A stretch of 64,000 nt of DNA. Source: Octopus vulgaris. Lineage: Eukaryota. Below are positions 2,813 to 60,149 of the stretch, piece by piece. The stretch is from positions 7,192,001-7,256,000 of the forward strand of contig OX597818.1 of assembly GCA_951406725.2 (NCBI GenBank). The letters run 5' to 3'. How positions within the stretch are numbered: position 1 is the first letter of the stretch; each line of letters starts with the position of its first letter. Below the pieces are notes generated by a model. It had not been told where the DNA came from. It worked only from the letters and a program-made list of their open reading frames with translations, and made no database searches. Both the position numbers and the translations under genes were made by a program.

Positions 2813-4261
2813 TCATACATTCATACATACATATGCGTACATGTATGTATAGACGCACAACACACATGCACACCACACACCCTGATACGCGCAGTCACGC
2901 AAACACTCACGCTTGTATATGTGCTTTTGTGTCTATATATTTCTACAAATAAATACGTCAGGAAGCAGAAGCTATAACCGTCGCAACTGAGTAAAATGTT
3001 AATACGGAAATTGGGAGATAGGAATGATAGTCTGTGGATTTACACTAACTGTCAACAATAAACACCGAGTAAGGAAATCTGTCCATCTCATATCTTTTGT
3101 CTTCTGGCACTAATTAAATTCTTCGTCTGATTGTCCGAAGACAGTCCTGATTTGTCAATTTTGGATGAGATGGCGACATTGAGATCAGCACATTTCATTC
3201 AAAGCCACGCCGTTGGTAACAACAATGATGAAATACTGTTAAAGATTATCTATAGCTGTCTCTCTGCTTCCCTCTGTCTCTCTTTTTTCACCCTTCCTCT
3301 ATTTCTTCCTCTCAGTATCTGACATTACCTAAATATCGCTCTCTAATTCTCTTAAACTCACTTTTAATTTTCTTTCTCATTTTCTACCCACCCTGTCTTC
3401 AATTTCTCCCTCCATCTCCGACGATGACACCCAGCAGACAGCTAAATTTTCTTCAGATTAATCTTTCCTTTCTGCTATGAGAGAAAAAAAATCATAAAGT
3501 GAAGACGGTCATGACATTTTTTAAACCAGAAAGTTAATGCAAATGATGTCTGTTCTAAACTGAAATTGAAATTGTATGGCGAATAGAGACTTGACTAATT
3601 AAATGAACTTACTTGCATGGCTTGTTTGCAGTATGATATAGCATGCTATAAAATAATATCGATATGTAAAGCTTGACACGAAGCCTTGCATAGGAATTGA
3701 TTGTAAGTATTACTATAAATTTATTGTAAGCAATTACCTTAATGTGGTCATTCGACCATAAAATAATACTCTACTCCCACACAATCCGGTCATATGCAGT
3801 CATGAATTCTTATTCTGAATGAAAGAATATGTTTGCAAGTAGTTTGGAAAACATCTAAAATTATGTCAAATTGAAATTCTTTTTCCTTGAGTTTTGTGAA
3901 AGCAACCACAATATTTATAGGGTTGTAGATTGATGAGATTGACACAGCAAATTTTTGTTTGAAATTGTGTTATTAAATCTCAGTCTAAGGAGATGAATCT
4001 CAAACGATGCAATTTTAAGTGCTTGCATATAGTTTAACTGCAGTTCAAACGTTGAAACAGAGTGGAATGAAGAGTAAAAATAGTAGAGTGGATGGGGATA
4101 TATTTGATGAATTCAGCAGTAACAGATTTGAGCAGATTTTTTAATACAGAGTAACTGGCTCAGTCTGTTTGATTTTGGTAGATGTGAAGCCGAGAAGATA
4201 TATCGGTTTCAAATTTTGACACAAGGACAGCAATTCTAAGTGGTGAAGATGGTACTTCCTT

Positions 4262-4759
4262 TGTCGTATCTATATTCTAGCTTGTTCTTTTTCTAACAGC
4301 ATCAGCACCTCGTTAGTTAAACTTTCTCTCTGAGACACCAGCAACTCAGTCACATCATCCTCTCTGACTATTTCAAATCTTGCATCCATTGCAAGTGTTA
4401 CATATATTTTCGAATTTAATGAAGACTCTCTGCTTGAGGAAAAATTTTTAAAGCACGGATACAATCTGATCATATAGTTCTCCAAACACTATTCAAAGTT
4501 GAAGGATTCACTTTATCCCATGACTTGGCTATATCATCCACAACATCTCTTGTGTTGAATTTTCCCCAGAAACTCTAGGCTTATCCTCCTAGTCAATTTC
4601 TTTCATTATTTGTTTGAAAGGTCTTCTCATGTATCTTGAACCAGGGACTGTGGCAAGCAAGCTGTATTATATGTTATATATTCAAGTTCACATTATCAAA
4701 GAAGCAATCTCAGCTCGCGGAGGCTTTTGGAACGTAACAACCGCGGTAGTCGAGGGAAT

Positions 4760-4763
<4 letters not shown>
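4262..4763 (-). mobile_element. Tigger/pogo-like DNA transposon relic
   Basis: Minus-strand peptides KFNTRDVVDDIAKSWDKVNPSTLNSVWR and EDDVTELLVSQRESLTNEVLMLLEKE resemble a Tigger transposase C-terminus; TIR-like end CCGCGGTAGTCGAGGGAATATTG|TA. Confidence 0.7.
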
Positions 4764-4818
<55 letters not shown>

Positions 4819-4881
4819 ACAGATATAAGATATGGATATATATATATCCATATCTTATATCTGTACACACACACACACATG

Positions 4882-4917
<36 letters not shown>

Positions 4918-4997
4918 CATAAGACTTATGTATATATTTCTAAACATCTTTATTATATATATGTATCTATACATTTGTGCGTATATGTATAAGTTCG

Positions 4998-5150
4998 TAT
5001 TTGTTTGAAAGGTCTTCTCATGTATCTTGAACCATGGACTGTGGCAAGCAAGCTGTATTATTGGTTATATATTCAAGTTCACATTATCAAAAAGGCAATC
5101 TCAGCTCGCGGAGACTTTTGGAACGTGACAACCGCGGTAGTCGAGGGATT

Positions 5151-5154
<4 letters not shown>
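4998..5154. repeat. Direct duplication of 4607-4763 (Tigger-like terminus)
   Basis: Near-identical ~157-bp copy, TTTGTTTGAAAGGTCTTCTC...GTCGAGGGATTATTG. Confidence 0.9.
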
Positions 5155-5217
<63 letters not shown>

Positions 5218-5220
<3 letters not shown>

Positions 5221-6494
5221 GATATGTTACATTACTCGATAGTCAAGATAAAACTCTGAGTTTCAGATGCCGAAGTGGGAATCCACGCCGCCATCTCTTC
5301 GGTTATCTGGCTATTTGAAAACGCTATGAAAAAATACCGTTATACAAAGGGAAATTACTGTGTTATAACTCTGCTTGCCTGCGTACTTATACATCGCTAT
5401 GTGAACGTACACATCTTCACTCGCATATTTCGCCATAAAAATTATATAAAAATACATAAAAAATATATAAAAAATATATAAAAAAATATATATACATAAA
5501 ATATATATAAAAAAATATGATAGAAGGTATGATGAGGTAAAAAACCTTCTTGGGACATAACATAGAAAGCACGTTCTAACCATGCTTATAGGAAACTCTT
5601 CAATAGACACAATTTAAAGAAATTTAAGAAAACAGCTGTTCATGCAGGAGTAAAGAATTGTGCCCGCTAAATGGAGCTTGCATGTCCAAGACCATCATAT
5701 ATGAAGCTACCGTAGACTCTATAACCACTAAAGACACCGTTTCGACGAAGAATTACGTGGGCCTTACAGATGGTAATTTCAAGGCCATGTTCAATAACCA
5801 CACTTTGAGCTTTAGGCACTGGAACAAAAGAAAAGCGACAAAATGATCTAATCATATTTGGTCTTTAAGAGATAAAGGTGTCGATTATAACATACATTGG
5901 AAGATTTTGGCCAAATGTAAGCCCTATACCAACGGCAGCGGAAGGTGCAGTCTATGCGACATGGAGAGATGGCTTATCTGGAAAAGCAGCTTAGACCCTA
6001 CTACATGTCTAAATGTGACTAAATTTCTGTTACGTTTTTGGTCCCCTAAAGAAGACAGATAGAACATGCTTTCTATGTTATGTCCCAAGAAGGTTTTTTA
6101 CCTCATCATACCTTCTATCATATATTTTTTATATATATTTTATGTATATATATATTTCTATATATTTTTTATATATTTTTTATGTATTTTTATATAATTT
6201 TTATGGCGAAATATGCGAGTGAAGATGTGTACGTTCACATAGCGATGTATAAGTACGCAGGCAAGCAGAGTTATAACACAGTAATTTCCCTTTGTATAAC
6301 GGTATTTTTTCATAGCGTTTTCAAATAGCCAGATAACCGAAGAGATGGCGGCGTGGATTCCCACTTCGGCATCTGAAACTCAGAGTTTTATCTTGACTAT
6401 CGAGTAATGTAACATATTATTTTATAGATAAATTTCCTCTATTTACACAATATTGAGGTCTCTTTCTTTCTTTTGTTATCTTACCGTTTTACCA
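5218..6494 (+). mobile_element. 5'-truncated Penelope-like element (Naiad-like GIY-YIG end) with inverted 5' copy of its 3' end
   Basis: CPLNGACMSKTIIYEATV..NYVGLTDGNFKAMFNNHTLSF..*SNHIWSLRDKGVDYNIHWKIL..RCSLC at ~5640-6010; ~360-bp inverted repeats 5218-5578 / 6060-6421; inserted in (TA)n. Confidence 0.9.
6331..6393 (+). ncRNA. Minimal type-I hammerhead ribozyme (variant core); mirror copy at 5246-5308 on - strand
   Basis: AGATAA-CCGAAGA-GATG..CATC-T-GAAA-CTCAGAG-TT-TTATCT: stem I AGATAA/TTATCT, stem II GATG/CATC, near-palindromic stem III. Confidence 0.6.
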
Positions 6495-6534
<40 letters not shown>

Positions 6535-7559
6535 ACAGATATAAGGTATGGATATATACATATATATTTATAAACATCTTTGTATATGTGTATCTATACA
6601 TTTGTGTGTATATGTATATGTTCGTATTTGTGTGTATGACTGTTTTCTCAATATGTCCATCACTTTCACCAACACAGTGCAGTTTGATTTGAACGAGATT
6701 TGAAGTATCTCAGAATTCATTTCTGTGATTGATTTTTCCTGGCAATTTCACATTTTTGCTACAAATGACGTATCACGATCTGCGTGGGCGTTCATGCTAT
6801 CCATATTGTAAAAATCCAAGTAATTCTCTTGATAGAGCAATCCATTGTATAGAAATGTGTGCTTCTCAGCGAAATTTGGAGAAATACATGTAAAAAAGAC
6901 AGAAAAATTTATATTTACCATATCATTCCCAGTTTAAGAAAATCCAAGTAAGAATTATATAACCTATTGTGTTGTCACTGTGACAGGAGTTAATTGCCTT
7001 GATACTTTGCAACCGAGACCATTGCCCGTTAACGTTTGCATCACAGTTTCAGTTACGCTTGCGTCAGTGTCTCGCTTATATGCTTGAGACACTATTGAAA
7101 AGTTATCTTCTATTATTCAAGTCCAGGTATTTTCTGCCTGTCCTGTAGAAGTGCCTTGTGTTTTGGACAAAAATGATCAGTGGAATCCCGCATCGGCGAA
7201 ATGAGTTCATTAGAAAGGTTTATGAAATTCCTGCCTCCTTCATCTACACTTAATCAGCTATTTTGACCATAACGATGAAGATGATGATGATGATGATTAG
7301 GAGGAAGAGGATTCTCAATCTCTTCCTCCATCTCATCATCATCAATAACAGAATTAACATAGTAACAACAACAACAACAACAACAACAACGGCAGTATAC
7401 GCTTCCGAAACTAACTCATTGTTAACAGAAGGTATAAATTTTCTTCTTTCGAAATCAGATGAGACCCATATCCTAAAAAGGTACCGGCCTGTCACTAGCC
7501 AGTTCAATGCATATAAATAGCTTCATCCATCATAACAGACCAAGCAGATGAAAGCAATA

Positions 7560-21120: not shown

Positions 21121-24356
<3,236 letters not shown>

Positions 24357-24562
24357 TCTTCTGAACTTACATTTGCTCCTCATAACTGACGTCTCAAAAT
24401 ATCAGAATATATAAAAATATTGCATCTCAATGTTGAGGTGAAACAGGAGTAGAAGCAGCAACATCACAATATATTTGCAAAATGAAGGTTCATACACATA
24501 CACACACACACACATACTCGTATTCATATACACATACATACTTCTATATGGCGTCTGTGTGC

Positions 24563-35559: not shown

Positions 35560-37310
35560 AAAAGTATTCCATCAAAATTTCTCTGTAGATTATTGAGATT
35601 TGCGTTACAAAGTAACACAATGAAATTTGAACAAAGATTTTACCATAGGCGAGGGGTTGGACCATGAGTACTCCCATGGCAGTTAATTTCGCTAATGTCT
35701 TCATGACGAAATTCGAGACACAGCTACTGAAGACATTCAAATCCTTTCATGGTCATGAACCAATACTTTGTTCACGGTTCACTGATGGCGTCTTTATTGT
35801 CTGAGAGGGCTCTCAGGATAGTTTACTTGAGTTCTTGCTTTTCTGTGAGTGTTATGCTAAAAACTATGGCACTAAGTCCAACATAAAATTTACGTCTAGT
35901 GTTTCAAAACTAGCATTGAATTTTTAGTCACAATAGTTAAGTTTTTTTCTGGAGGCAGAGTAGTGACAGAGTTATTTTGCAAGCCCACGTCATCCCACAT
36001 TTACCTTCAACGTCGGTCCGATCATCCACATCATATTATTCGGTCAAATCCGAAATCCTAATATCTAAGGATAAAACGGATTTGTACTGCCATAGGTAAT
36101 TACTGGAAACATGCAAATGCTTTTGTACATCATTATGTCAAACGCGTTTACAGTGAATCATGATGAAATGAAATAGCTAATGAAATAGCTAAGTTTAGCA
36201 AAGATTGTCAAATCTTCACGCGTAGTTTTAGCAAACACAGTACAATAGATGACAGAATTCCTTTAGTGGTTAACTGGTACCGACATTTAGCTGGCATTTC
36301 AAGTGTTGTATGAAAGTTATCAGCATGGTGCGAAAAATATCCGCGTTTCAAACGGATATTTCCTCAGCCAATATTTCTTCAAGAATTTTTATCACTTCTT
36401 ATTTTGAACTTGACAAAGACAGGCTTACTGTCGAAATATTGTTCAACCAATAAAATATCTATTACAATAGAATCGCACTCTTCGCCTTTAGACGGAATAA
36501 GACTATAAGAGAATTATTGACCTCTATTTCTGATTCCAAGAAAACGAACATTGGAGTATCTACACGCTGTACCTTGAAAAACAGCCGCAAGAGAGGAAAG
36601 ACCTGTTCACTGTGCAACAACATGAGTCAAGTGAATTCCATTTGGCATCATAACAGAAATGCTACGATTTATACCGAAGCTGGGACATGTAGAGATTCCC
36701 AGTTGGTGTACTCGGCAGAATGCATGAAACACAACTTGATTTATTTTGGTTCTACAACTGAACAATTAAACAAAAGATTTAATGGGCACAGATATGACGT
36801 CAGGCACAATAACAGCCGTTCGACAGAACTTGCTGAACAGTTTTTTCTTTAAACGGCTGCAATTTTGAAAAAGACTTCAAAGTGCATATTCTCAGAAAAT
36901 AGTCTGAATCTACTTCATTTTCACTTCTCAAAATGCATGAAGAGAAATATGCTTGCGGTTATTAACATCACGCCCTGGAGAAATGATTAAAATGGAGATT
37001 AATGATCAAATTTATACAAAACTGTTTAATTAAATATTTTCCTTTCCTTTTTTTCTTTCCTCTTTCTTTCTGTCTCTTTTTTTTCTGTCTTTTTCTTTTC
37101 GCCTGTTATAAAATTGAATCTTAAAGTCTGATGATGTCATTCCATTAGCGTGTGGACACTGGTTTCTCTCTTTCATACTTTAAATTTAAATTTCTATAAT
37201 TTTGAATTTTTATAACTTCTTATTTTGAACTCGACAAAGACAGGTTTACTGTCGAAATATTGTTCAACCTATAAAATATTTATTACAATAGAATCGCGCT
37301 CTTCGTCTAG
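35560..37310 (+). mobile_element. Decayed Penelope-like element (Neptune-like RT-thumb-GIY-YIG)
   Basis: MSTPMAVNFANVFM, LFCKPTSSHIYL..SDHPHHI, YLRIKRIC, AFRRNKTIRELL, CSLC, TCRDSQLVYSAEC..IYFGSTTEQLNKRFNGH; 3' repeat with a hammerhead-like fold. Confidence 0.85.
37225..37267 (+). ncRNA. Degenerate minimal hammerhead (second copy 36404-36446)
   Basis: TTGAAC-TCGACAAA-GACAG..CTGTC-GAAA-TA-TT-GTTCAA: stems I and II intact, CUGANGA box mutated. Confidence 0.5.
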
Positions 37311-43957: not shown

Positions 43958-44049
43958 TAATAATAATAATAATAATAATGATAATAACAGTAATACTCGG
44001 CGTACATATTGAATATCTATTCATCCGTTGATAGTCTAGATATTCTATT

Positions 44050-45060
44050 ACTGACGCTTCTTGGTGTGCATCGCAATATATGTTCCTGGTGATTGGATCC
44101 TCGACTCTTATATTTTAAGTTCTCATTTGACTTATTGAATGGTTCAGATTTCTCATTAATGAGGCTGAGTTTTGTGCCAAGTAATTTTACCACTTTGTGA
44201 TGTTTTCAGTTTTATTTCTAATCAAACGTTCTTTAAGAATTTTGAGTTTTTCTTGCACCTTTCTATTTCTAATTTGAAAATTTTGTGTTTAGTGAACAAT
44301 GCGTCATCTCTATAAAATCCTACCCCATATTCGTTAGCCAATGTTCTATTTACGTTAATAAGTGTATGCCTACTACGTCCGTGATTTGCGTAGACTTGAT
44401 AGTCCCCATCGTTATGCCAAATGAATCAAACTTATCCGATCGAGTAAATAGCATTCCTCTGTATTCTATTATATTACTTCTAGCTGCTAAAATTATATCA
44501 GTTTGTTCCCTAGTTAGGTCGAATGTTGGTTTTAGCGCCTCGTTTAGTAGAAATGGGTTTATAGACTGGTTCGATATGTCCAACTGATCAAAATTGGTAT
44601 TGTTTTTGTTCTCTAGGTTTTTAAACCAAGTGATAATTTCATCGGTGTTAAACCACAATATGAGGTTGGTTACACATTTTAATTTAGGTATTATATTTTC
44701 CATTATTACTTTGCTAATTATACCTATATCTGATTTGGACGGGCATATAAATCTTACTGTTGGGTTATTATGGAATTTTTCCTTCTGTTTTTTTTTTGTG
44801 CTTATTCCAGGTGTTATATGTCTGTAAGGTCTAGTTTTATCATGTATACCTAACTTCATAACTATTTCGAGTCCATTCTTATTTATATTATCAAGTGTGT
44901 TGCGAGGTGTGTACTTCTATTTGCTATATAACTGCTTGGTTTATAAGTTCGGTGTATCTGTATTTTTCTGCACGTTCTAATATTCCAGTTGCGTTCCTGA
45001 ATATCTGAAGCAGTTCATTTAATTTCCTCTGGAAAATAATATTTCGAAAAGAAGTAAGGA
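44050..45060 (-). mobile_element. Naiad-like PLE reverse transcriptase fragment
   Basis: FHNNPTVRFICPSKSDIGIISK, WFNTDEIITWFKN, FGITMGT..ITDVVG, GFYRDDALF (YRDD catalytic motif). Confidence 0.8.
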
Positions 45061-45460: not shown

Positions 45461-46107
45461 ATAAGAGGGTTGGTATTAATCAGTTTGGTCAACAAACCCC
45501 ACTATATAGCAGCTAATCTCTTGGGTTCAAAATTTATTGAGGAGATCAGGTCTTGAATGAAATAGAGCAAGAAATATACTCCTATCGTTAAATCTGCTAA
45601 ATGAATGACCATCCTTAAAATCTACAGAATGAATAGCAAATAAATCCAACAGCATCACACACCTCCAGCCCCATATTACTACTATTCTTTCCCCTATTCC
45701 CATCAACTACCCCCCCTTATCAAGTACATACAGAAATACCCACATAGCTAGATTAGCCATCATACTGGCAAGAAGGGATAAACATCCCTCTGTGATTCCT
45801 CCGATAATATAGTTTCACCTGATGAAATGAATCAATGCTTGTGATCAACAGAATGCCGCAGGTCGTACGGACTATACTGTACTAATCTCAAGGATACCGA
45901 TTCTGGTGTCATATTAAAAGCATGTGATTAGTGGAAACGCACGTACCGGTGTATTAAAATTTTATAAATCCCATGCTATGATTACTGTTATTATAATATT
46001 TATCCTACATTATACTGGTATAACCATGCTGCTCCCTCGAAAAACTGACTCACTAGCTAGAATCATTTGCACAACCCGAATGTTACTATAAACGAATTAT
46101 ATATATA

Positions 46108-46289
46108 TATTAGAGAAAAAAACCACTATTATGCAATTCAAACAATGATAGACATAAACCAAATCATAAATGAAAAATTTAAAAAATTTAATAAAAATAT
46201 ATTTTTTATAAAAATATATTTTATTGTTATTTATGATTTGGTTTATGTCTATCATTGTTTGAATTGCCTAATAGTGTTTTTTCTCTAAT
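46108..46289. repeat. Inverted repeat (~62-bp arms) in AT-rich context
   Basis: ATTAGAGAAAAAA..CAATTCAAACAATGATAGACATAAACCAAATCATAAAT and its reverse complement at 46229-46289. Confidence 0.85.
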
Positions 46290-46368
46290 TTATATATTAT
46301 ATATTTATATTGTGAAATTTGATATAATACTAAATTGAATTTTTCCCAGTAACTTTGGAGTTATACTC

Positions 46369-52417: not shown

Positions 52418-52444
52418 ATGTACGTATGTATATATATATATATA

Positions 52445-52827
52445 TATAATTTATTTATGTTGAGGGCATTACTATACACAAATGCCACACGCTAGGAGGG
52501 AGTCTTAAAGTCAAAACTACCAAAACAAATAGACACATAGTACCGAATACGAGGGAATGCAACTCGCGAAGTGAGCCTCTTAAAAACAGAATTCAGCTGC
52601 ATATCAAATGATTTCATATGATATCTTATGAAATCTTATGAAATCCTATGATATCTTTGTGAAATCATGATATGCAGCTGAATTCTGTTTTAAGAGGCTC
52701 ACTTCGCGAGTTGCATTCCCTCGTATTCGGTACTATGTGTTTATTTATTTTGGTAGTTTTGACTTAAGAGTCCCTCCTAGCGTGCGGCATTTATGTATAG
52801 TAATGCCTTCAATATAAATAAATTATA
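52445..52827. repeat. Long fold-back inverted repeat (~170-bp arms)
   Basis: ACACATAGTACCGAATACGAGGGAATGCAACTCGCGAAGTGAGCCTCTTAAAA matched exactly by its reverse complement; spacer has short TATGAAATC repeats; starts at (TA)n. Confidence 0.9.
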
Positions 52828-53407
52828 TTTAAGAGAAAAATTGATGGATTGTTCTCTTATGAGGTTTTTCACGCTACTTGATAAATTCTTATAAAAATTT
52901 TATCACATATATATATATTAGGAAAATAAGAGAAGGTAGAAAACGCTAAAATAATTTTATCATGAAATACATTTTGTAAAGGTTAGTACCGGATTTGTGT
53001 TTTCGATTTTTTCAACTAAAATAAAAAGAAGAAAAACAATTAAATTGAACAACAAATTAAACGAAGTGGCTTGGAAATATTTCCATAGTCTTCAAGTAGG
53101 TAGGACATTTTCCTTTTTCTGTCTTTCTTTTAGTTTGTGAAGGCTCGGTAGGTAGTAGCAGATCTGAAGAAATAATGCTTATGAGTGCAGAGAATTATTT
53201 GGTTCTGAAGTTTGATGATTTATGCATCAATATACACCAACCCACTTGCGGGGGAAACGAACACCTTCTAACCTCTTGCAGCTAACAGGATTGCTAGACT
53301 AACTCGGTTTCAAGCTATTTGATTCGACTTCAGTCGTGAGCACCTGCGCACTACAGTGCGCAAGAATGACACACAATTTTGTGAAGTATTCCATATTTAT
53401 CATAGAA

Positions 53408-53926: not shown

Positions 53927-54244
53927 TCACACACACATACGCATGTAATCAACATTTATAGGATTTTTCGCTTCTTGTCATGAAATCGTTGTTAACATTA
54001 TTGCAAATGCTGTAGCTACGACATACTACGAAATACTGACATCTAACAGATTATAAGAATGTACCACCATTCTATCACATGCACGCACATATATGCACTT
54101 GTACATGCACGTGCACACACGAGTTCACACACACACACAATATACACTTACTGAGAAATATACATCAAAATTTATTGTCTATATTAAACATAATTTAAGA
54201 TATGAAAAATGTTATATATATGTATATATATATATATATATATA

Positions 54245-54310
<66 letters not shown>

Positions 54311-54318
<8 letters not shown>

Positions 54319-54614
54319 GGAGATATACTTGCATAGCAAGTGACTTGATCTGAGATCGTGTGCTGAAGCAAAAACAGCTGCAGCTTGTAAGGTATTTATA
54401 AGCCATTTAAAATACACAAAAACCGTCAAATTCGCTTCAAAGTTTAAAATTCATTTGTCATGAACTAACTGTTACTTTCTCAGATGCGGCACGGAATTTT
54501 GTCAGTGAACAACCCACGGTTTCAAAGCGACGAAAATATTAATTAAATTTAAATGTTGAAGTGAATCTAACGGTTTTTATGTGTTTTTAAATGGCTTATA
54601 AACACCTTCCACGC

Positions 54615-54687
<73 letters not shown>

Positions 54688-54871
54688 TAGTAAAGAGTGA
54701 AAAAACTACAGAAGGCTTGAATGTTAAAAAATATATATATTTGCGTCAATATGTCTGAAGAATATTAGAAAAGTTAAAAAAAATTTTTTTTTCCTCTTGT
54801 AATGACATAATTTAAAAGAAAGACCGGTTTCGCGTGTAGCTTTTCAAATTTCTTGCGACGTTTCTTGCGAC

Positions 54872-54872
<1 letters not shown>
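54311..54872. repeat. Direct repeat copy A (~560 bp; copy B 55675-56232)
   Basis: Base-by-base match to 55675-56232 except microsatellite/homopolymer lengths; composed of the 2470-family repeat, (TA)(GA)n and a second PLE-end-like piece. Confidence 0.95.
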
Positions 54873-54912
<40 letters not shown>

Positions 54913-55004
54913 TATATATATATATGGGTGTGTGTGATTGTGTATAGAAGAATATATTAATAAAAAGAATTCCAACCTTGTCTGATTTTCACGTTTTATT
55001 TCGG

Positions 55005-55633
55005 ATCGTGTCGTTCGCGAGAAGAGACTCAATAGATCGCAGTGTGGTAGCTGCTCTACTAAGCACGTCACTCCGAACGGCAAGTCGGGTCGTATGCAAG
55101 CGATCCCTTTCGTCTCGATCTCTTCGAACTAGTCGGGGCGGGACGACGAGCAGACGACCACGGCGCGAACGCCGCAGCCGCCGCCGCGTCCCCGAATGGC
55201 AATTCCGCCGGCGACGCTGCCGCTCGCCGCGCGAACGCGACGGGCGGACGGCGAACGCCGAGCTAAGGCATGCGCCTTGAGGTTGAGACGCTTTTGGAAA
55301 ACAACTCGGGTCCGGCTACGGTTCCGGCTTAGAGGCGTTCAGCCGTTATCGCTCAGAGGCAGCCTGGCACCACCGCTCTATCGAGCGAGCGCGCAAACCG
55401 TTGCTCTGATCCCGCGGTTCCTCTCGTACTGGACGGGATAGCCGTAGCCGAGTTGACGTTGCCGACGCCCGCCTAAGGTCGGCCGGAGAAACGCCGGCGG
55501 CACGGCCAGGACGGACGGACGCGCGAGCGCGCCGCCGCCTCGACCGCACGCCGAGTACCCCGACGCGACTCGGGGCGCCGCGTACGCGCGATGCATCGGT
55601 AGGATAAAACTAACCTGTCTCACGACGGTCTAA
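55005..55633 (-). rRNA. 28S rRNA: Isolated 28S rRNA 3'-terminal fragment (dispersed copy/pseudogene)
   Basis: - strand TTAGACCGTCGTGAGACAGGTTAGTTTTATCCTAC, sarcin-ricin loop AGTACGAGAGGAAC (55417-55430), CTGAACGCCTCTAAG (55328-55342), GTAGAGCAGC..CTGCGATCTATTGA near the 3' end; GC-rich expansions. Confidence 0.95.
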
Positions 55634-55674
55634 GACCGTCTTAGACGGTCTTAGACCGTCGTGAGACAGGTTAA

Positions 55675-55978
55675 TGTGTTATGGAGATATACTTGCATAG
55701 CAAGTGACTTGATCTGAGATCGTGTGCTGAAGCAAAAACAGCTGCAGCTTGTAAGGTATTTATAAGCCATTTAAAATACACAAAAACCGTCAAATTCGCT
55801 TCAAAGTTTAAAATTCATTTGTCATGAACTAACTGTTACTTTCTCAGATGCGGCACGGAATTTTGTCAGTGAACAACCCACGGTTTCAAAGCGACGAAAA
55901 TATTAATTAAATTTAAATGTTGAAGTGAATCTAACGGTTTTTATGTGTTTTTAAATGGCTTATAAACACCTTCCACGC

Positions 55979-56042
<64 letters not shown>

Positions 56043-56231
56043 AAATAGTAAAGAGTGAAAAAACTACAGAAGGCTTGAATGTTAAAAAATATATATATTT
56101 GCGTCAATATGTCTGAAGAATATTAGAAAAGTTAAAAAAAAATTTTTTTTTCCTCTTGTAATGACATAATTTAAAAGAAAGACCGGTTTCGCGTGTAGCT
56201 TTTCAAATTTCTTTGCGACGTTTCTTGCGAC

Positions 56232-56232
<1 letters not shown>
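55675..56232. repeat. Direct repeat copy B
   Basis: See copy A. Confidence 0.95.
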
Positions 56233-56277
<45 letters not shown>

Positions 56278-56309
56278 CCAAGAAAAAAGCCACAAGAATG
56301 GATTAGTAG

Positions 56310-56398
56310 TTTAGTACAATTGTTTCATACCAAGAACAATTTTATTTAAAGCTGCAAGTATTGCAGCAAATACAAATGTCCAGTATTCATCAGCTAAA
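56310..56398 (-). ncRNA. Type-I hammerhead ribozyme with canonical core
   Basis: - strand TTTAG-CTGATGA-ATAC..GTAT-GAAA-CAATTG-TA-CTAAA: stem I TTTAG/CTAAA, stem II ATAC/GTAT with long loop, palindromic stem III, GUA cleavage triplet. Confidence 0.8.
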
Positions 56399-57341
56399 TC
56401 ACATATATGTTTTCCAGACATCTTAGAGAGTGTGTATATCCTCATGAAGTATTAGGAGTGAGTTCTATGAAATTTAAAGTCAAATTATAAGCAGACTCAA
56501 ATTGCTTTCTAATGATGCACAGTTTTATAAAAGTTTTTAAAAAGATTCTTAACTTCCCAGAGAAGGTGAATCCATCCATAAAAATGCAGATATAACTTCC
56601 GGAGACATGAGGAAAGCTGTTGATCACACAGCAGTTCATTTCACAACTAAGCTGTTGCAAACAGAATTTGGTTGTAGCAGTAAGAAAGTCAGCGAAGCAG
56701 ATTCTGTCCAAATAAAGGACATTATGGGAGGAAGGGAGTAGGGGAGTAAGAAGGCATAGATATACCACAGACAAAGGTTAGTTTATTTCTGTGGTGACAG
56801 AAAATCTAGGTCATTGTTGAAGGAATCTTAGATTTATAAAAGTTTGTCTACCACCAGCTATGAACTGAGACACTCCCAGAGTTAATGTTAGGATAGAGAA
56901 TACAGAGAGATCAAAGGAAAACATTAAAGGGGTCAAAGGCCATCAGTAGAGGAAGATACAGTAAGAAAGTTAAGGGTAACACTAGAATAGAAGGTTATTT
57001 ATTTATTATTGTTGTTTCTATTTTAACTTATGTTTATATATTGTAAGAAAGAATTTAGGTCAACATCCAGAGGTCAAATAAATTCAATAGTAAATTGTGG
57101 GAGAATTTTACTTATTCAAAGTATATAGTGAAAATTACTTGTATCCTTAAGGGAATAGTATTATTTATTAAATTTAGAATAGAATTAGGAAATATTATCA
57201 AATTTATATGATTTAAGTTAGGTTAGTCAAATTGACTATATAGTCAATTAAAAATTAGCATCGTACAAATACTATTTATTTTTATATATTAAAAAGGTAC
57301 AGTTAGAAAGGTGGAACACCAGTGGAAGAGCCTAAAGATTT

Positions 57342-58286
57342 CTATTTAAAATATTTTAGAGTTTTGATTTTTGAGTGAATACAAGACGGACCTAACTCTA
57401 AAAGGTTATTCAATAGGTTTTTATTTTTTCTATGTTTTAGAATTTCATATGTCTCCATGGAGCAGAGTTGGCAACCTGCCCTATTATTTCTATATGGTAT
57501 TGCCTTTCTAACTATTTCCCATTTTAGGTTATATTTAATATTATTAGTTTTGAGTTCCCAGATCTTACTGGAAAGTGTGGTGCAGCCAGCTTTATGACCT
57601 AACTTAAAGGAGGAGAGATGATTGCTAATTCTTTGCTTAAATTTTATAGTACAACCCAGATAAAAAAATTTGCAATTCGCAGTAGTTATAGTACATTTAT
57701 AGATTACATTATGGACCCCACACTGACCAGATGCCGGGCATTTTGACTTAATCTTACAATTGCAACTAGGGGGATAATTTTCAGATTTAGAATTATTTAA
57801 GGATAGATCTCTCATATTGCTGCTATTCAAATTATTATGAGTATTATTTTCGTTATTATAGGTAATATTATTATCTGAAGTTGTGTTATCATTTATCGAT
57901 CCATTTACACTATCATTTAGATCTACTATAGCCATATCATATTTATCAGTATTCTTGGTATTACTATTATTATTGTTTGTATTTATATCCGAATGCTCAT
58001 TACTGCTATAGATATCATTGTTATCTTCATTCTCGATATTTCTTTTTGTATTGCTCATATTATTATCATTATTCTTATTCCTATTAATATCAATATCATT
58101 ATTAGTTATTCTATTGCTGTTGATGCTGCAATTATTTTGATAATTATTATTATTGTTGTTATTATTTTTATTTTTATCTATGATAATATTATTACAATTA
58201 TTATTGGTATTCATGTTGGTATTAGTCTTATTATTCCTGGCTAACTTAATGTTTTTATTATTAATTCTAGCTATTATAGTGGACAT
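57342..58286 (-). CDS. Open C-terminal part of the PLE ORF: Asn-rich linker + GIY-YIG endonuclease (transposon-encoded)
   Basis: 314-aa ORF with uninterrupted VIY/YLG, R, H and Cys motifs. Confidence 0.8.
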   Translation of the reverse strand: MSTIIARINNKNIKLARNNKTNTNMNTNNNCNNIIIDKNKNNNNNNNNYQNNCSINSNRITNNDIDINRNKNNDNNMSNTKRNIENEDNNDIYSSNEHSDINTNNNNSNTKNTDKYDMAIVDLNDSVNGSINDNTTSDNNITYNNENNTHNNLNSSNMRDLSLNNSKSENYPPSCNCKIKSKCPASGQCGVHNVIYKCTITTANCKFFYLGCTIKFKQRISNHLSSFKLGHKAGCTTLSSKIWELKTNNIKYNLKWEIVRKAIPYRNNRAGCQLCSMETYEILKHRKNKNLLNNLLELGPSCIHSKIKTLKYFK

Positions 58287-58904
58287 ATTTGGGAGGATTG
58301 AGTAAGAAATCCAAACCGTTCTCTTAGAAATTATTCTATGATATTTATGAGAGGCTGGAAAATTTTTTTGTAGTATTAATTTGAATTCGCCGTATATATC
58401 CGATAATATCGCGCAGTTAAATGGAACATTGAACCAGATTATATCTTCTTAAATTAGAGTTAGAGTTAGTTGAATTATTATTGATCTCACCAGAGTCATT
58501 ATTCTTATTACTACTATTTGTATGCTTTTTTGATTTATCTAAATTAGTTTTATCAAAATTACTTTGCTCTGGTCCATATTTTTATTCTTACGATTTGGTT
58601 TGGATGCTAGATTAGTTGTCACCGTAAATCTATTTTTATTTTTATTATGGGCGTGATCTATATTCATGTTTGCGTAGTTAATGTTCACTCCATTATTAGG
58701 AATATGTAAGCTCTCTTTATCAATAAAGGTAATCTCTTGATTATATCCTGCTTTAGATAATGCTGTATTATAATGCTTAGAGTGAGAGTTAAATATATCA
58801 TTATTAGAAGACAATTTGGAAATTCTTAGGGAAATATTTCTAACCAAAGATTTTATTATATTTGGGGGATGATTAGATAATTTATTTACGTATATAGTGA
58901 TTTC

Positions 58905-59224
58905 GTGGAGGCGCAATGTCCCAGAGGTTAGGGCAGCGGACTCGCGGTCGTAGGATCGCGGTTTCGATTCCCAGACCGGGCGTTGTGTGTGTTTATTGAG
59001 CGAAAACACCTAAAAGCTCCACGATGTTCCGGCAGGGGGTGGTGATCCCTGCTGTACTTTTTCATCACTCTTTCTCTCACTCTTTTGTTGGCCTGCCCGC
59101 TTAGTCAGCGAGGTGGCGTCATTCGAAGGCTAAAACAATGCGAAGGCTAAAACAATGCGAACGCATTGTGACCAGCGATGTGTAGCAACATCTGATGGGC
59201 TGGTCCGTCACGTGACGTCACGTG
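58905..59224 (+). mobile_element. tRNA-derived SINE (tRNA-Arg/OR-like, tentative) inserted in the Naiad RT
   Basis: tRNA-like head with box B GGTTTCGATTCCC; 13-bp TSD ATATAGTGATTTC at 58892-58904 and 59225-59237; tail CACGTGA repeats. Confidence 0.88.
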
Positions 59225-59685
59225 ATATAGTGATTTCACCTTCTTTTCTAAATGGGTAATGCAGATTAGAGTTAAGGTCTAATGTAATATCCAGGAAATT
59301 AGTGCCAGGTTCATAAGTTATGTTAAGGTTAAAATCTTTAAAGAACTTGTTAATTTTCTTTCTAATCCGTTCAATGCTAGATTTATTATTACTAGGAATA
59401 ACAAACAGAGCATCATCCCTATATATAGACCACTTTGTAATTCCGGGATTTCCCTTTTTATGCACTTTAATAGATATGCACCTACTAAGTTAGTTATCTC
59501 AGCCGAATCACGAGAACCCAAGAAAGTTAGAGGTTGTGAATCCAATCAACTAAGGGATAATATATATCCAATATGCTGCTGGGAGAATACCCTATTATTA
59601 ATACACAAGTGATTTTTCATTGCATGGTAATTACACTACTGAATGTAATAAATGATTGGGGGTAAAAAGTTGTTTTACCCTTAAT

Positions 59686-60063
59686 TTATACGGTAATAAA
59701 AAATAGAGGGGATGAAGAGGTGGTATTCATCAACTTTTAGACATTATATTTATATCTATTATTTATTTTTGGAAAAAAAAAGCCAATTCTAACAATATAC
59801 ATACATGTATAACATATTATACTTTACATATATAAAAATACCAATAATTATTAAAATATATAACGTAGAACATAGTAGAATAGTTTCTAGGTTCTACGTT
59901 ATATATTTTAATAATTACTGGAATTTTATATATTTAATGCATATGTTATACACGTATGTATATTGTTATAATTGTTTTTTTAAATAAATAGATATAAATT
60001 TAATGTCTAAAAGTTGATGAATACCACCTCTTCATATCCACTCTATTTTCTTATTGCCGTATA
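59686..60063. repeat. Imperfect ~380-bp palindrome
   Basis: Outer arms TGAAGAGGTGGTATTCATCAACTTTTAGACATTA and reverse complement; inner arms TAATTATTAAAATATATAACGTAGAAC and reverse complement around 59875. Confidence 0.85.
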
Positions 60064-60149
60064 CATACATACATATATATATATATGTATGTTTTGATAT
60101 ATGTATGTATATATATATATATATATTTTTATATATATATACATATATA

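Follow-up and report, generated by a model that had tools for sequence, protein, structure and literature searches.

A probable retrocopy of the 28S rRNA 3′ end, bounded at the m3U position and set between long direct repeats in an octopus genome

Introduction

The 3′ end of a 28S rRNA lies in microsatellite-rich animal DNA of the octopus, between two nearly identical direct repeats and next to a broken PLE. The locus was analysed within a window of 64 kb, by which the whole stretch of 64,000 nucleotides is meant, and it raises the question of how a piece of rRNA came to stand there and whether RNA or DNA served as its template. An earlier, sequence-only reading had proposed that a 28S transcript was trans-mobilised into a TA tract by PLE machinery, or that the structure is a chimeric element of rRNA and pLTRs. 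Our verdict is that the locus is a SINE28-like rRNA retrocopy. Retrocopies, snap-backs and long target-site duplications (TSDs) are each already known; the locus unites three unusual features, namely an end at the m3U boundary, snap-back in nested rounds and an apparent TSD of great length. We consider it probable (roughly 0.6) that methylated 28S was retrocopied once, very recently, through a nick, a stall at m3U, snap-back and joining at a second nick. That the template was RNA by any route, whether through a retrocopy or an RNA-templated repair patch, is held with high confidence. The retrocopy locus shows no sign of function.

Results

Layout of the locus

The features of the locus are listed in Table 1. 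On the minus strand, the order of repeat B, hairpin, 28S end with the sarcin-ricin loop, linker, (TA)n and repeat A was found as previously read, and only the length of the linker, put at ~100 nt, had to be corrected to 75 nt of non-simple sequence. The polarity is TPRT-like, with the rRNA 3′ end at the TA tract and the truncation at the opposite end. The (TA)n tract at the insert junction carries an interruption at 54911, and the TA tract on the B side has no such interruption.

Table 1. Coordinates of the features of the 28S-bearing locus and of the neighbouring PLE in the window.
Feature	Position	Strand	Remarks
(TA)n/(TG)n tract	54214-54310		Repeat B begins again a few bases into its TG end; putative second-strand nick
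Repeat A (target DNA)	54311-54872	+	X1 54311-54612; (TA)n(GA)n 54613-54684; X2 54685-54872
(TA)n tract, insert 3′ junction	54873-54925		Putative priming site
AT-rich linker past the 28S 3′ end	54926-55000	-	75 nt, 29% GC
28S rRNA 3′ 633 nt	55001-55633	-	65% GC; E. coli U2585 equivalent at the 5′ limit, mature 3′ end at the other
Snap-back sequence	55634-55673	+	40 nt; nested self-templated copies of 7, 6 and 27 nt
Single base without assigned source	55674		Between the snap-back sequence and repeat B
Repeat B, near-identical to A	55675-56232	+	Putative target-site duplication
(TA)n tract	56233-56276		Between repeat B and the PLE-bearing segment
Older broken PLE	56277-59521	-	Starts 44 nt past repeat B, across the TA tract
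RT fragments of the neighbouring PLE	59521-59241	-	tblastn with full-length relatives
Thumb/linker of the neighbouring PLE, with Cys-rich linker	58895-58245	-	Relatives mapped
C-terminal GIY-YIG of the neighbouring PLE	57800-57345	-	E=0.006, below the Pfam cut-off
Presumed 3′ region of the neighbouring PLE	~1 kb past the GIY-YIG	-	Putatively assigned to the PLE
SINE-like insert within the neighbouring PLE	~58905-59225		By eye

The direct repeats as a putative target-site duplication

Direct repeats of ~560 bp had been reported from the letters, and the alignment of A with B confirmed them at 98.2% identity over 564 columns; when the TA tract was added, the identity was 98.2% over 608 columns. 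X1 (302/302) and X2 (188/188) were identical in the two repeats, with no substitution in 490 non-microsatellite bases, and the differences comprised two homopolymer indels and unequal microsatellite lengths. X1 is a repeat of a fold-back family; its paralogue at 2469-2748, also a fold-back, differed from it at 25 of 146 aligned bases, as against 0 of 302 between the two X1 copies of A and B. No further copy of X2 was found in the window. The repeat unit looks like ordinary target DNA, consisting of two old repeats and microsatellites, that was duplicated very recently.

The duplicated unit reaches from a few bases within the TG tract to the TA tract, and the latter is also where the RNA 3′ side of the insert lies, an arrangement that corresponds to a TSD. 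Given the lack of substitutions, the composite of unrelated older repeats and microsatellites, the shared private variants and the ends inside microsatellites, A and B are best read, from their sequences, as one putative TSD of ~560-600 bp and not as pLTRs of an element. Long TSDs have a precedent in the LINEs Dualen (median 900 bp) and R9 (126 bp) (PMC9977147); in the literature consulted, no comparably long TSD was encountered for PLEs.

The 5′ limit of the 28S piece

The only Rfam match at the gathering score in the whole window was LSU_rRNA_eukarya at 55003-55456 on the minus strand (140.7 bits; model positions 3006-3399 of 3401), with the sarcin-ricin loop within it. According to the alignment to LSU loci, the rRNA similarity extends past the Rfam match to 55633, giving 633 nt in total. 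When the piece was aligned to rrlB, window position 55633 corresponded to U2585 of the E. coli 23S rRNA, and the columns of U2584 and G2583 were mismatched, so that the match ends at the U2584/U2585 boundary. The comparison set contained 109 loci, that is, E. coli and 108 metagenome LSU loci obtained by a scan with a 23-nt 28S pattern; 84 of the 109 were anchored in the alignment and 25 could not be anchored. Columns 55633-55623 agreed with the window in 84/84 anchored loci. In the column of U2584, the m3U equivalent, T was present in 81 loci and G in 3, and in that of G2583 all 84 carried G; the window agreed with none of the 84 in either column. Farther upstream, columns 55638, 55639 and 55642 agreed in at most one of the 84 loci, and columns 55636, 55637, 55640 and 55641, four of the nine just upstream of the proposed stop, agreed with the LSU consensus in 84/84. 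This stretch half-matches LSU, yet an inverted copy accounts for all of it. The metagenome loci included no close relative, the top rows reaching 70-77% over the sarcin-ricin region, and accordingly they yielded no ETS. Because four upstream columns match in all 84 loci and the comparison loci are all distant, a short error-prone read-through or a divergent host 28S might also account for the stretch.

In fly, mouse and human, the conserved GGGUU of the peptidyl-transferase centre (PTC) carries the modification m3U on its first U; among the organisms tested (fly, mouse, human and yeasts), it was missing from yeasts, and primer extension terminated at the base directly 3′ of it (PMC11641110). 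It is one of two Watson-Crick-face modifications in human 28S, and a group II intron RT produced mainly misincorporation, not stops, at m3U4530 (PMC5066629), so the block depends on the enzyme. In the octopus, the 28S match breaks off one base 3′ of this PTC uridine, which in fly, mouse and human carries the modification. If truncation were uniform over the fragment, the chance of ending at exactly that base would be ~1 in 600, as estimated post hoc. Since the 5′ limit coincides with the m3U boundary and the hairpin starts there, the locus points to modified rRNA, and not rDNA, as the template, with m3U presumably present in the octopus. The non-consensus base at 55634 would likewise be consistent with misincorporation opposite m3U. 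The locus is likely a DNA record of an RNA modification. Among the open-access papers listed by the literature search, none was found that ties m3U to retrocopy ends.

The hairpin and the linker

A perfect palindrome was found at 55611-55673, with 31-bp arms at 55611-55641 and 55643-55673; when the insert was base-shuffled 200 times, no arm exceeded 9 bp. The snap-back sequence within it consists of reverse-complement copies of already-made sequence, added in the three steps given in Table 1 and starting at the base of the 28S limit, and the first two snap-back primers were very short, at 1-3 bp. Snap-back is a known class of TPRT 5′ junction, observed for R2 insertions (PMC11371274, PMC11331408), and inverted 5′ pieces are typical of PLEs (PMC8557442).

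At the other end of the 28S piece, no second copy of the 75-nt linker was found within the window, and no recognisable element tail or poly(A) was seen on the insert. The linker is either 3′ ETS, which would imply a 3′-extended pre-rRNA as template, perhaps annealed via a run of UA, or it is a tail belonging to a different RNA, which the RT would have left for the 28S 3′ end. An RT jump onto 28S has a precedent in 28S/LINE-1 chimeras (10.1101/2025.02.02.635956). Displaced target DNA was rejected as the source of the linker, given its single copy in the window.

The neighbouring PLE

The element across the TA tract from repeat B had been taken for a hammerhead-bearing Naiad 45 bp away. A PLE does start there, at a distance of 44 nt, and Naiad was ruled out, as the GIY-YIG follows the RT instead of being N-terminal. 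The RT piece showed 41% identity to P0110, and the GIY-YIG is C-terminal in P0110, P0091 and P0096. With phmmer, 3700 relatives of the GIY-YIG piece were obtained, the closest being 85% identical over 99 residues (an Octopus sinensis record); a word-index protein search had returned no longer relatives of this piece, and these were found by phmmer. Four neighbouring ORF pieces, when scanned against Pfam, yielded no meaningful match. Judged by its domain order (RT, Cys-rich linker, GIY-YIG), the neighbour is a predicted C-terminal-EN PLE of the Neptune/Nematis-like type. Naiads have the GIY-YIG N-terminal to the RT, are without canonical hammerheads and persist in cephalopods as long-inactive remnants (PMC8557442), and this long inactivity disfavours their involvement in a very recent insertion.

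The stops and the internal insert indicate that the neighbouring PLE is older than the duplication, and this copy cannot be assigned to the time of the event. Its presence shows that TA tracts in this DNA are used by PLEs, not that a PLE made the insert. Nor was its description as hammerhead-bearing upheld: a complete hammerhead was found neither by the descriptor scan of the element nor among 32 Rfam matches at E<=10, none of which belonged to a hammerhead family. A CUGAUGA half core is present at 56393 (56330-56402, minus strand), with two short stems and no GAAA, ~115 nt from the PLE-side end, and resembles half-cores noted for some PLEs. A retrozyme, which is built of tandem hammerhead units (bioRxiv 2026.07.22.740005), was rejected as a reading of the locus, where neither an intact hammerhead nor a tandem array was found.

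Discussion

Proposed mechanism

In the retrocopy reading, a nick in the TA tract would have primed a retroelement RT, which would have copied first the linker and then 633 nt of 28S before stalling at m3U, where the rRNA match stops. The cDNA end would have folded on itself three times by snap-back and would have been joined to the TG tract at another nick, ~560-600 bp off, and fill-in would have duplicated the DNA between the nicks, giving repeats A and B. Both nicks and the order of these steps are our inference. The reading is favoured by the limit at the m3U boundary, the snap-back copies, the TPRT-like polarity, the identity of A and B and the precedent for long TSDs; against it stand the enzyme dependence of the block, the four matching upstream columns, the 1-3-bp primers and the absence of an element tail or poly(A). 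Furthermore, an older duplication at 4607-5226/6500-6634 suggests that an rRNA insert is not needed for such duplications to form.

Within the retrocopy explanation, a (TA)n-targeting C-terminal-EN (Neptune-like) PLE is our first guess for the enzyme, at slightly less than even odds, and a LINE is nearly as likely; a host polymerase may be a further candidate. PLE endonucleases prefer AT-rich or (TA)n sites and produce TSDs of variable length (PMC11167929, PMC8557442), and in vitro a PLE endonuclease preferred AT-rich DNA and cut both strands (PMC11167929). As for the earlier proposal that PLE machinery carried a 28S transcript into the TA tract, the RNA-mediated insertion is sustained by the m3U limit and the snap-back, and the PLE is left as a possible driver.

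Alternative explanations

The m3U boundary and the nested snap-backs would be accounted for equally well by an RNA-templated repair patch, in which a break or fork at the microsatellites led to the tandem duplication and a 28S cDNA was patched into the junction, the cDNA coming from a retroelement RT without its nuclease or from a host polymerase with RT activity. Polymerase-theta-type repair makes templated insertions. Such a patch would also suit the two duplication ends in microsatellites, the insert without an element tail and the older TA-tract tandem duplication elsewhere in the window. It is nevertheless regarded as unlikely, given that the polarity is cleanly that of TPRT, the TA tract adjoining the RNA 3′ side, and that at the junctions no deletion occurred and just one base is without an assigned source. 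An assembly artefact, that is, a duplication or hairpin junction made by a chimeric or fold-back read or by merged haplotypes, is very improbable. The whole A-insert-B structure is known from one locus in one assembly, A and B differ solely in homopolymer and microsatellite lengths, which are usual types of long-read error, and among the 24 sequencing runs listed none exceeded the 0.62 of sampled words contained in the best. In seven runs (25-412 million letters), the word share was 0.31-0.34, and the 28S part alone predicts 0.32-0.35; such shares are too coarse to place the linker and carry no weight as evidence. However, low shares are expected where short-read contigs break at microsatellites, the inverted arm is only 31 bp long, is made of nested copies and is followed by repeat B as a direct repeat, and an artefact from a DNA library, prepared without reverse transcription, would leave the end at the m3U boundary unexplained.

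No more probable than an artefact is the capture, at the DNA level, of an rDNA piece (the 28S end with the true 3′ ETS) during repair, possibly after a site-specific rDNA cut. In its favour, the linker may be true 3′ ETS, repeated 3-bp microhomologies in a short natural stem at the site favour fold-back on any template, and mosquito RT elements presumably insert in this part of the 28S. A DNA template would, however, give the consensus base at 55634, whereas the window differs and the match is lost exactly there. Lowest of all is placed a multi-copy non-autonomous element composed of 28S and pLTR-like repeats. X1 belongs to a repeat family and folds back on itself, and by eye X1 and X2 each contain a hammerhead-like motif in degenerate form; on these grounds the former description of the repeats as PLE-end-like is suggestive at most. 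Against such an element, the repeat is a composite with internal microsatellites, private variants common to A and B are missing from the paralogue, X2 and the linker are single-copy in the window, and no intact hammerhead was found in the repeat by the descriptor scan or Rfam. This is the chimeric 'rRNA + pLTR' element offered by the sequence-only reading, and the ends of the repeats inside microsatellites also make it unlikely.

Comparison with known systems

Like SINE28/3′-LSU retrocopies (Longo et al. 2015, PMC4994717), the octopus copy has a 5′-truncated 28S 3′ end, a simple-repeat tract and direct repeats. Its simple-repeat tract is TA and follows a 75-nt linker, whereas SINE28 has an A tail; its repeats are ~560-600 bp and its insert ~750 bp, compared with TSDs of 5-28 bp and a length of up to ~500 bp in SINE28; moreover, it occurs in an invertebrate, has a snap-back hairpin and is known in one copy (PMC4994717). 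Among the longest class of human 3′-LSU fragments, in Table 1B of that study, 4 of 8 start at LSU 4501 and the others at 4480, 4495, 4511 and 4513, six of the eight rows being segmental duplicates of one locus (PMC4994717). A start at 4501 would adjoin m3U4500 if the numberings agree, and would then favour the m3U reading; the modification is not remarked on for these starts in the accessible text of that study (PMC4994717). The 27 SINE28s of Table 1A start at 4595-4963, none at the m3U site, and two longer human fragments, with starts at 1736 and 4253, cross this site (PMC4994717), observations that tell against the m3U reading.

The 28S/LINE-1 chimeras (10.1101/2025.02.02.635956) are similar in that 28S is joined in sense to other sequence, provided that the linker is an element tail; they differ in that the octopus insert is without a recognised LINE and that chimera fragments often start near 3636 and not at the PTC. 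In R2 PRINT junctions (PMC11371274, PMC11331408), the cDNA 3′ end also self-primes before target joining, whereas the octopus copy is a natural locus with three nested rounds that start at the position of a modified base. Dualen and R9 (PMC9977147) share the duplication of hundreds of bp around the insertion, but the octopus insert copies a host RNA and neither LINE was seen in the window. Neptune/Nematis PLEs (PMC8557442) target TA tracts and have inverted 5′ segments, and such PLEs adjoin in the window; unlike them, the octopus insert has no recognisable PLE sequence, ORF, hammerhead or tail.

A wider reading, in which an active (TA)n-targeting octopus PLE trans-mobilises Pol I rRNA and leaves TSDs several hundred bases long, and in which m3U is a recurrent 5′ end of such 28S retrocopies throughout animals, the human 4501 class included, is regarded as doubtful. 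If it were true, genome assemblies alone would map rRNA base methylation; with a PLE as the driver, rRNA would join the cargo of PLEs and long TSDs their chemistry. A retrocopy that ends on an RT-blocking modification offers a way to separate RNA-templated from DNA-templated rRNA fragments, and the same principle gives a DNA-only test for m3U in animals with unmapped rRNA. Should the linker prove to be 3′ ETS, the order of events in pre-rRNA would also be fixed by this copy, with m3U made before 3′-trimming.

Other elements in the window

A second C-terminal-EN PLE 3′ end was noted at 4607-6634, with its GIY-YIG at 5628-6044, an inverted copy (5206-5578/6060-6433, 97.9%) and, by eye, a hammerhead-like motif near 6325-6395. 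It lies in a TA tract of the older tandem duplication mentioned above (~400 bp, 88-90%), which also contains a microsatellite fold-back near 4790-4900. At 36383-37308, a GIY-YIG-like fragment (ORF 36454-36852), which by its motifs we take to resemble a Naiad N-terminal endonuclease, is flanked by direct repeats of 105 bp (93%), and a CUGAUGA half core lies near 37130. The X1 copy at 2469-2748 folds back exactly at the short AT palindrome of its hammerhead-like motif. Long fold-backs (80-90% self-complementary) were observed at 2377-2851, 46101-46297, 52441-52831 and 59684-60066, at least three of the four adjoining TA tracts; they are either MITEs or inverted PLE ends. A LINE RT at 22512-24401 (RVT_1, E=4.7e-32), presumably R4/Dong-like from its motifs, is interrupted by or lies within (AAT)n tracts, and other LINE pieces are also present in the window. 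Finally, an RT piece at 43996-44916, with 34% identity to P0110, belongs to the same PLE group as the neighbour of the 28S insert.
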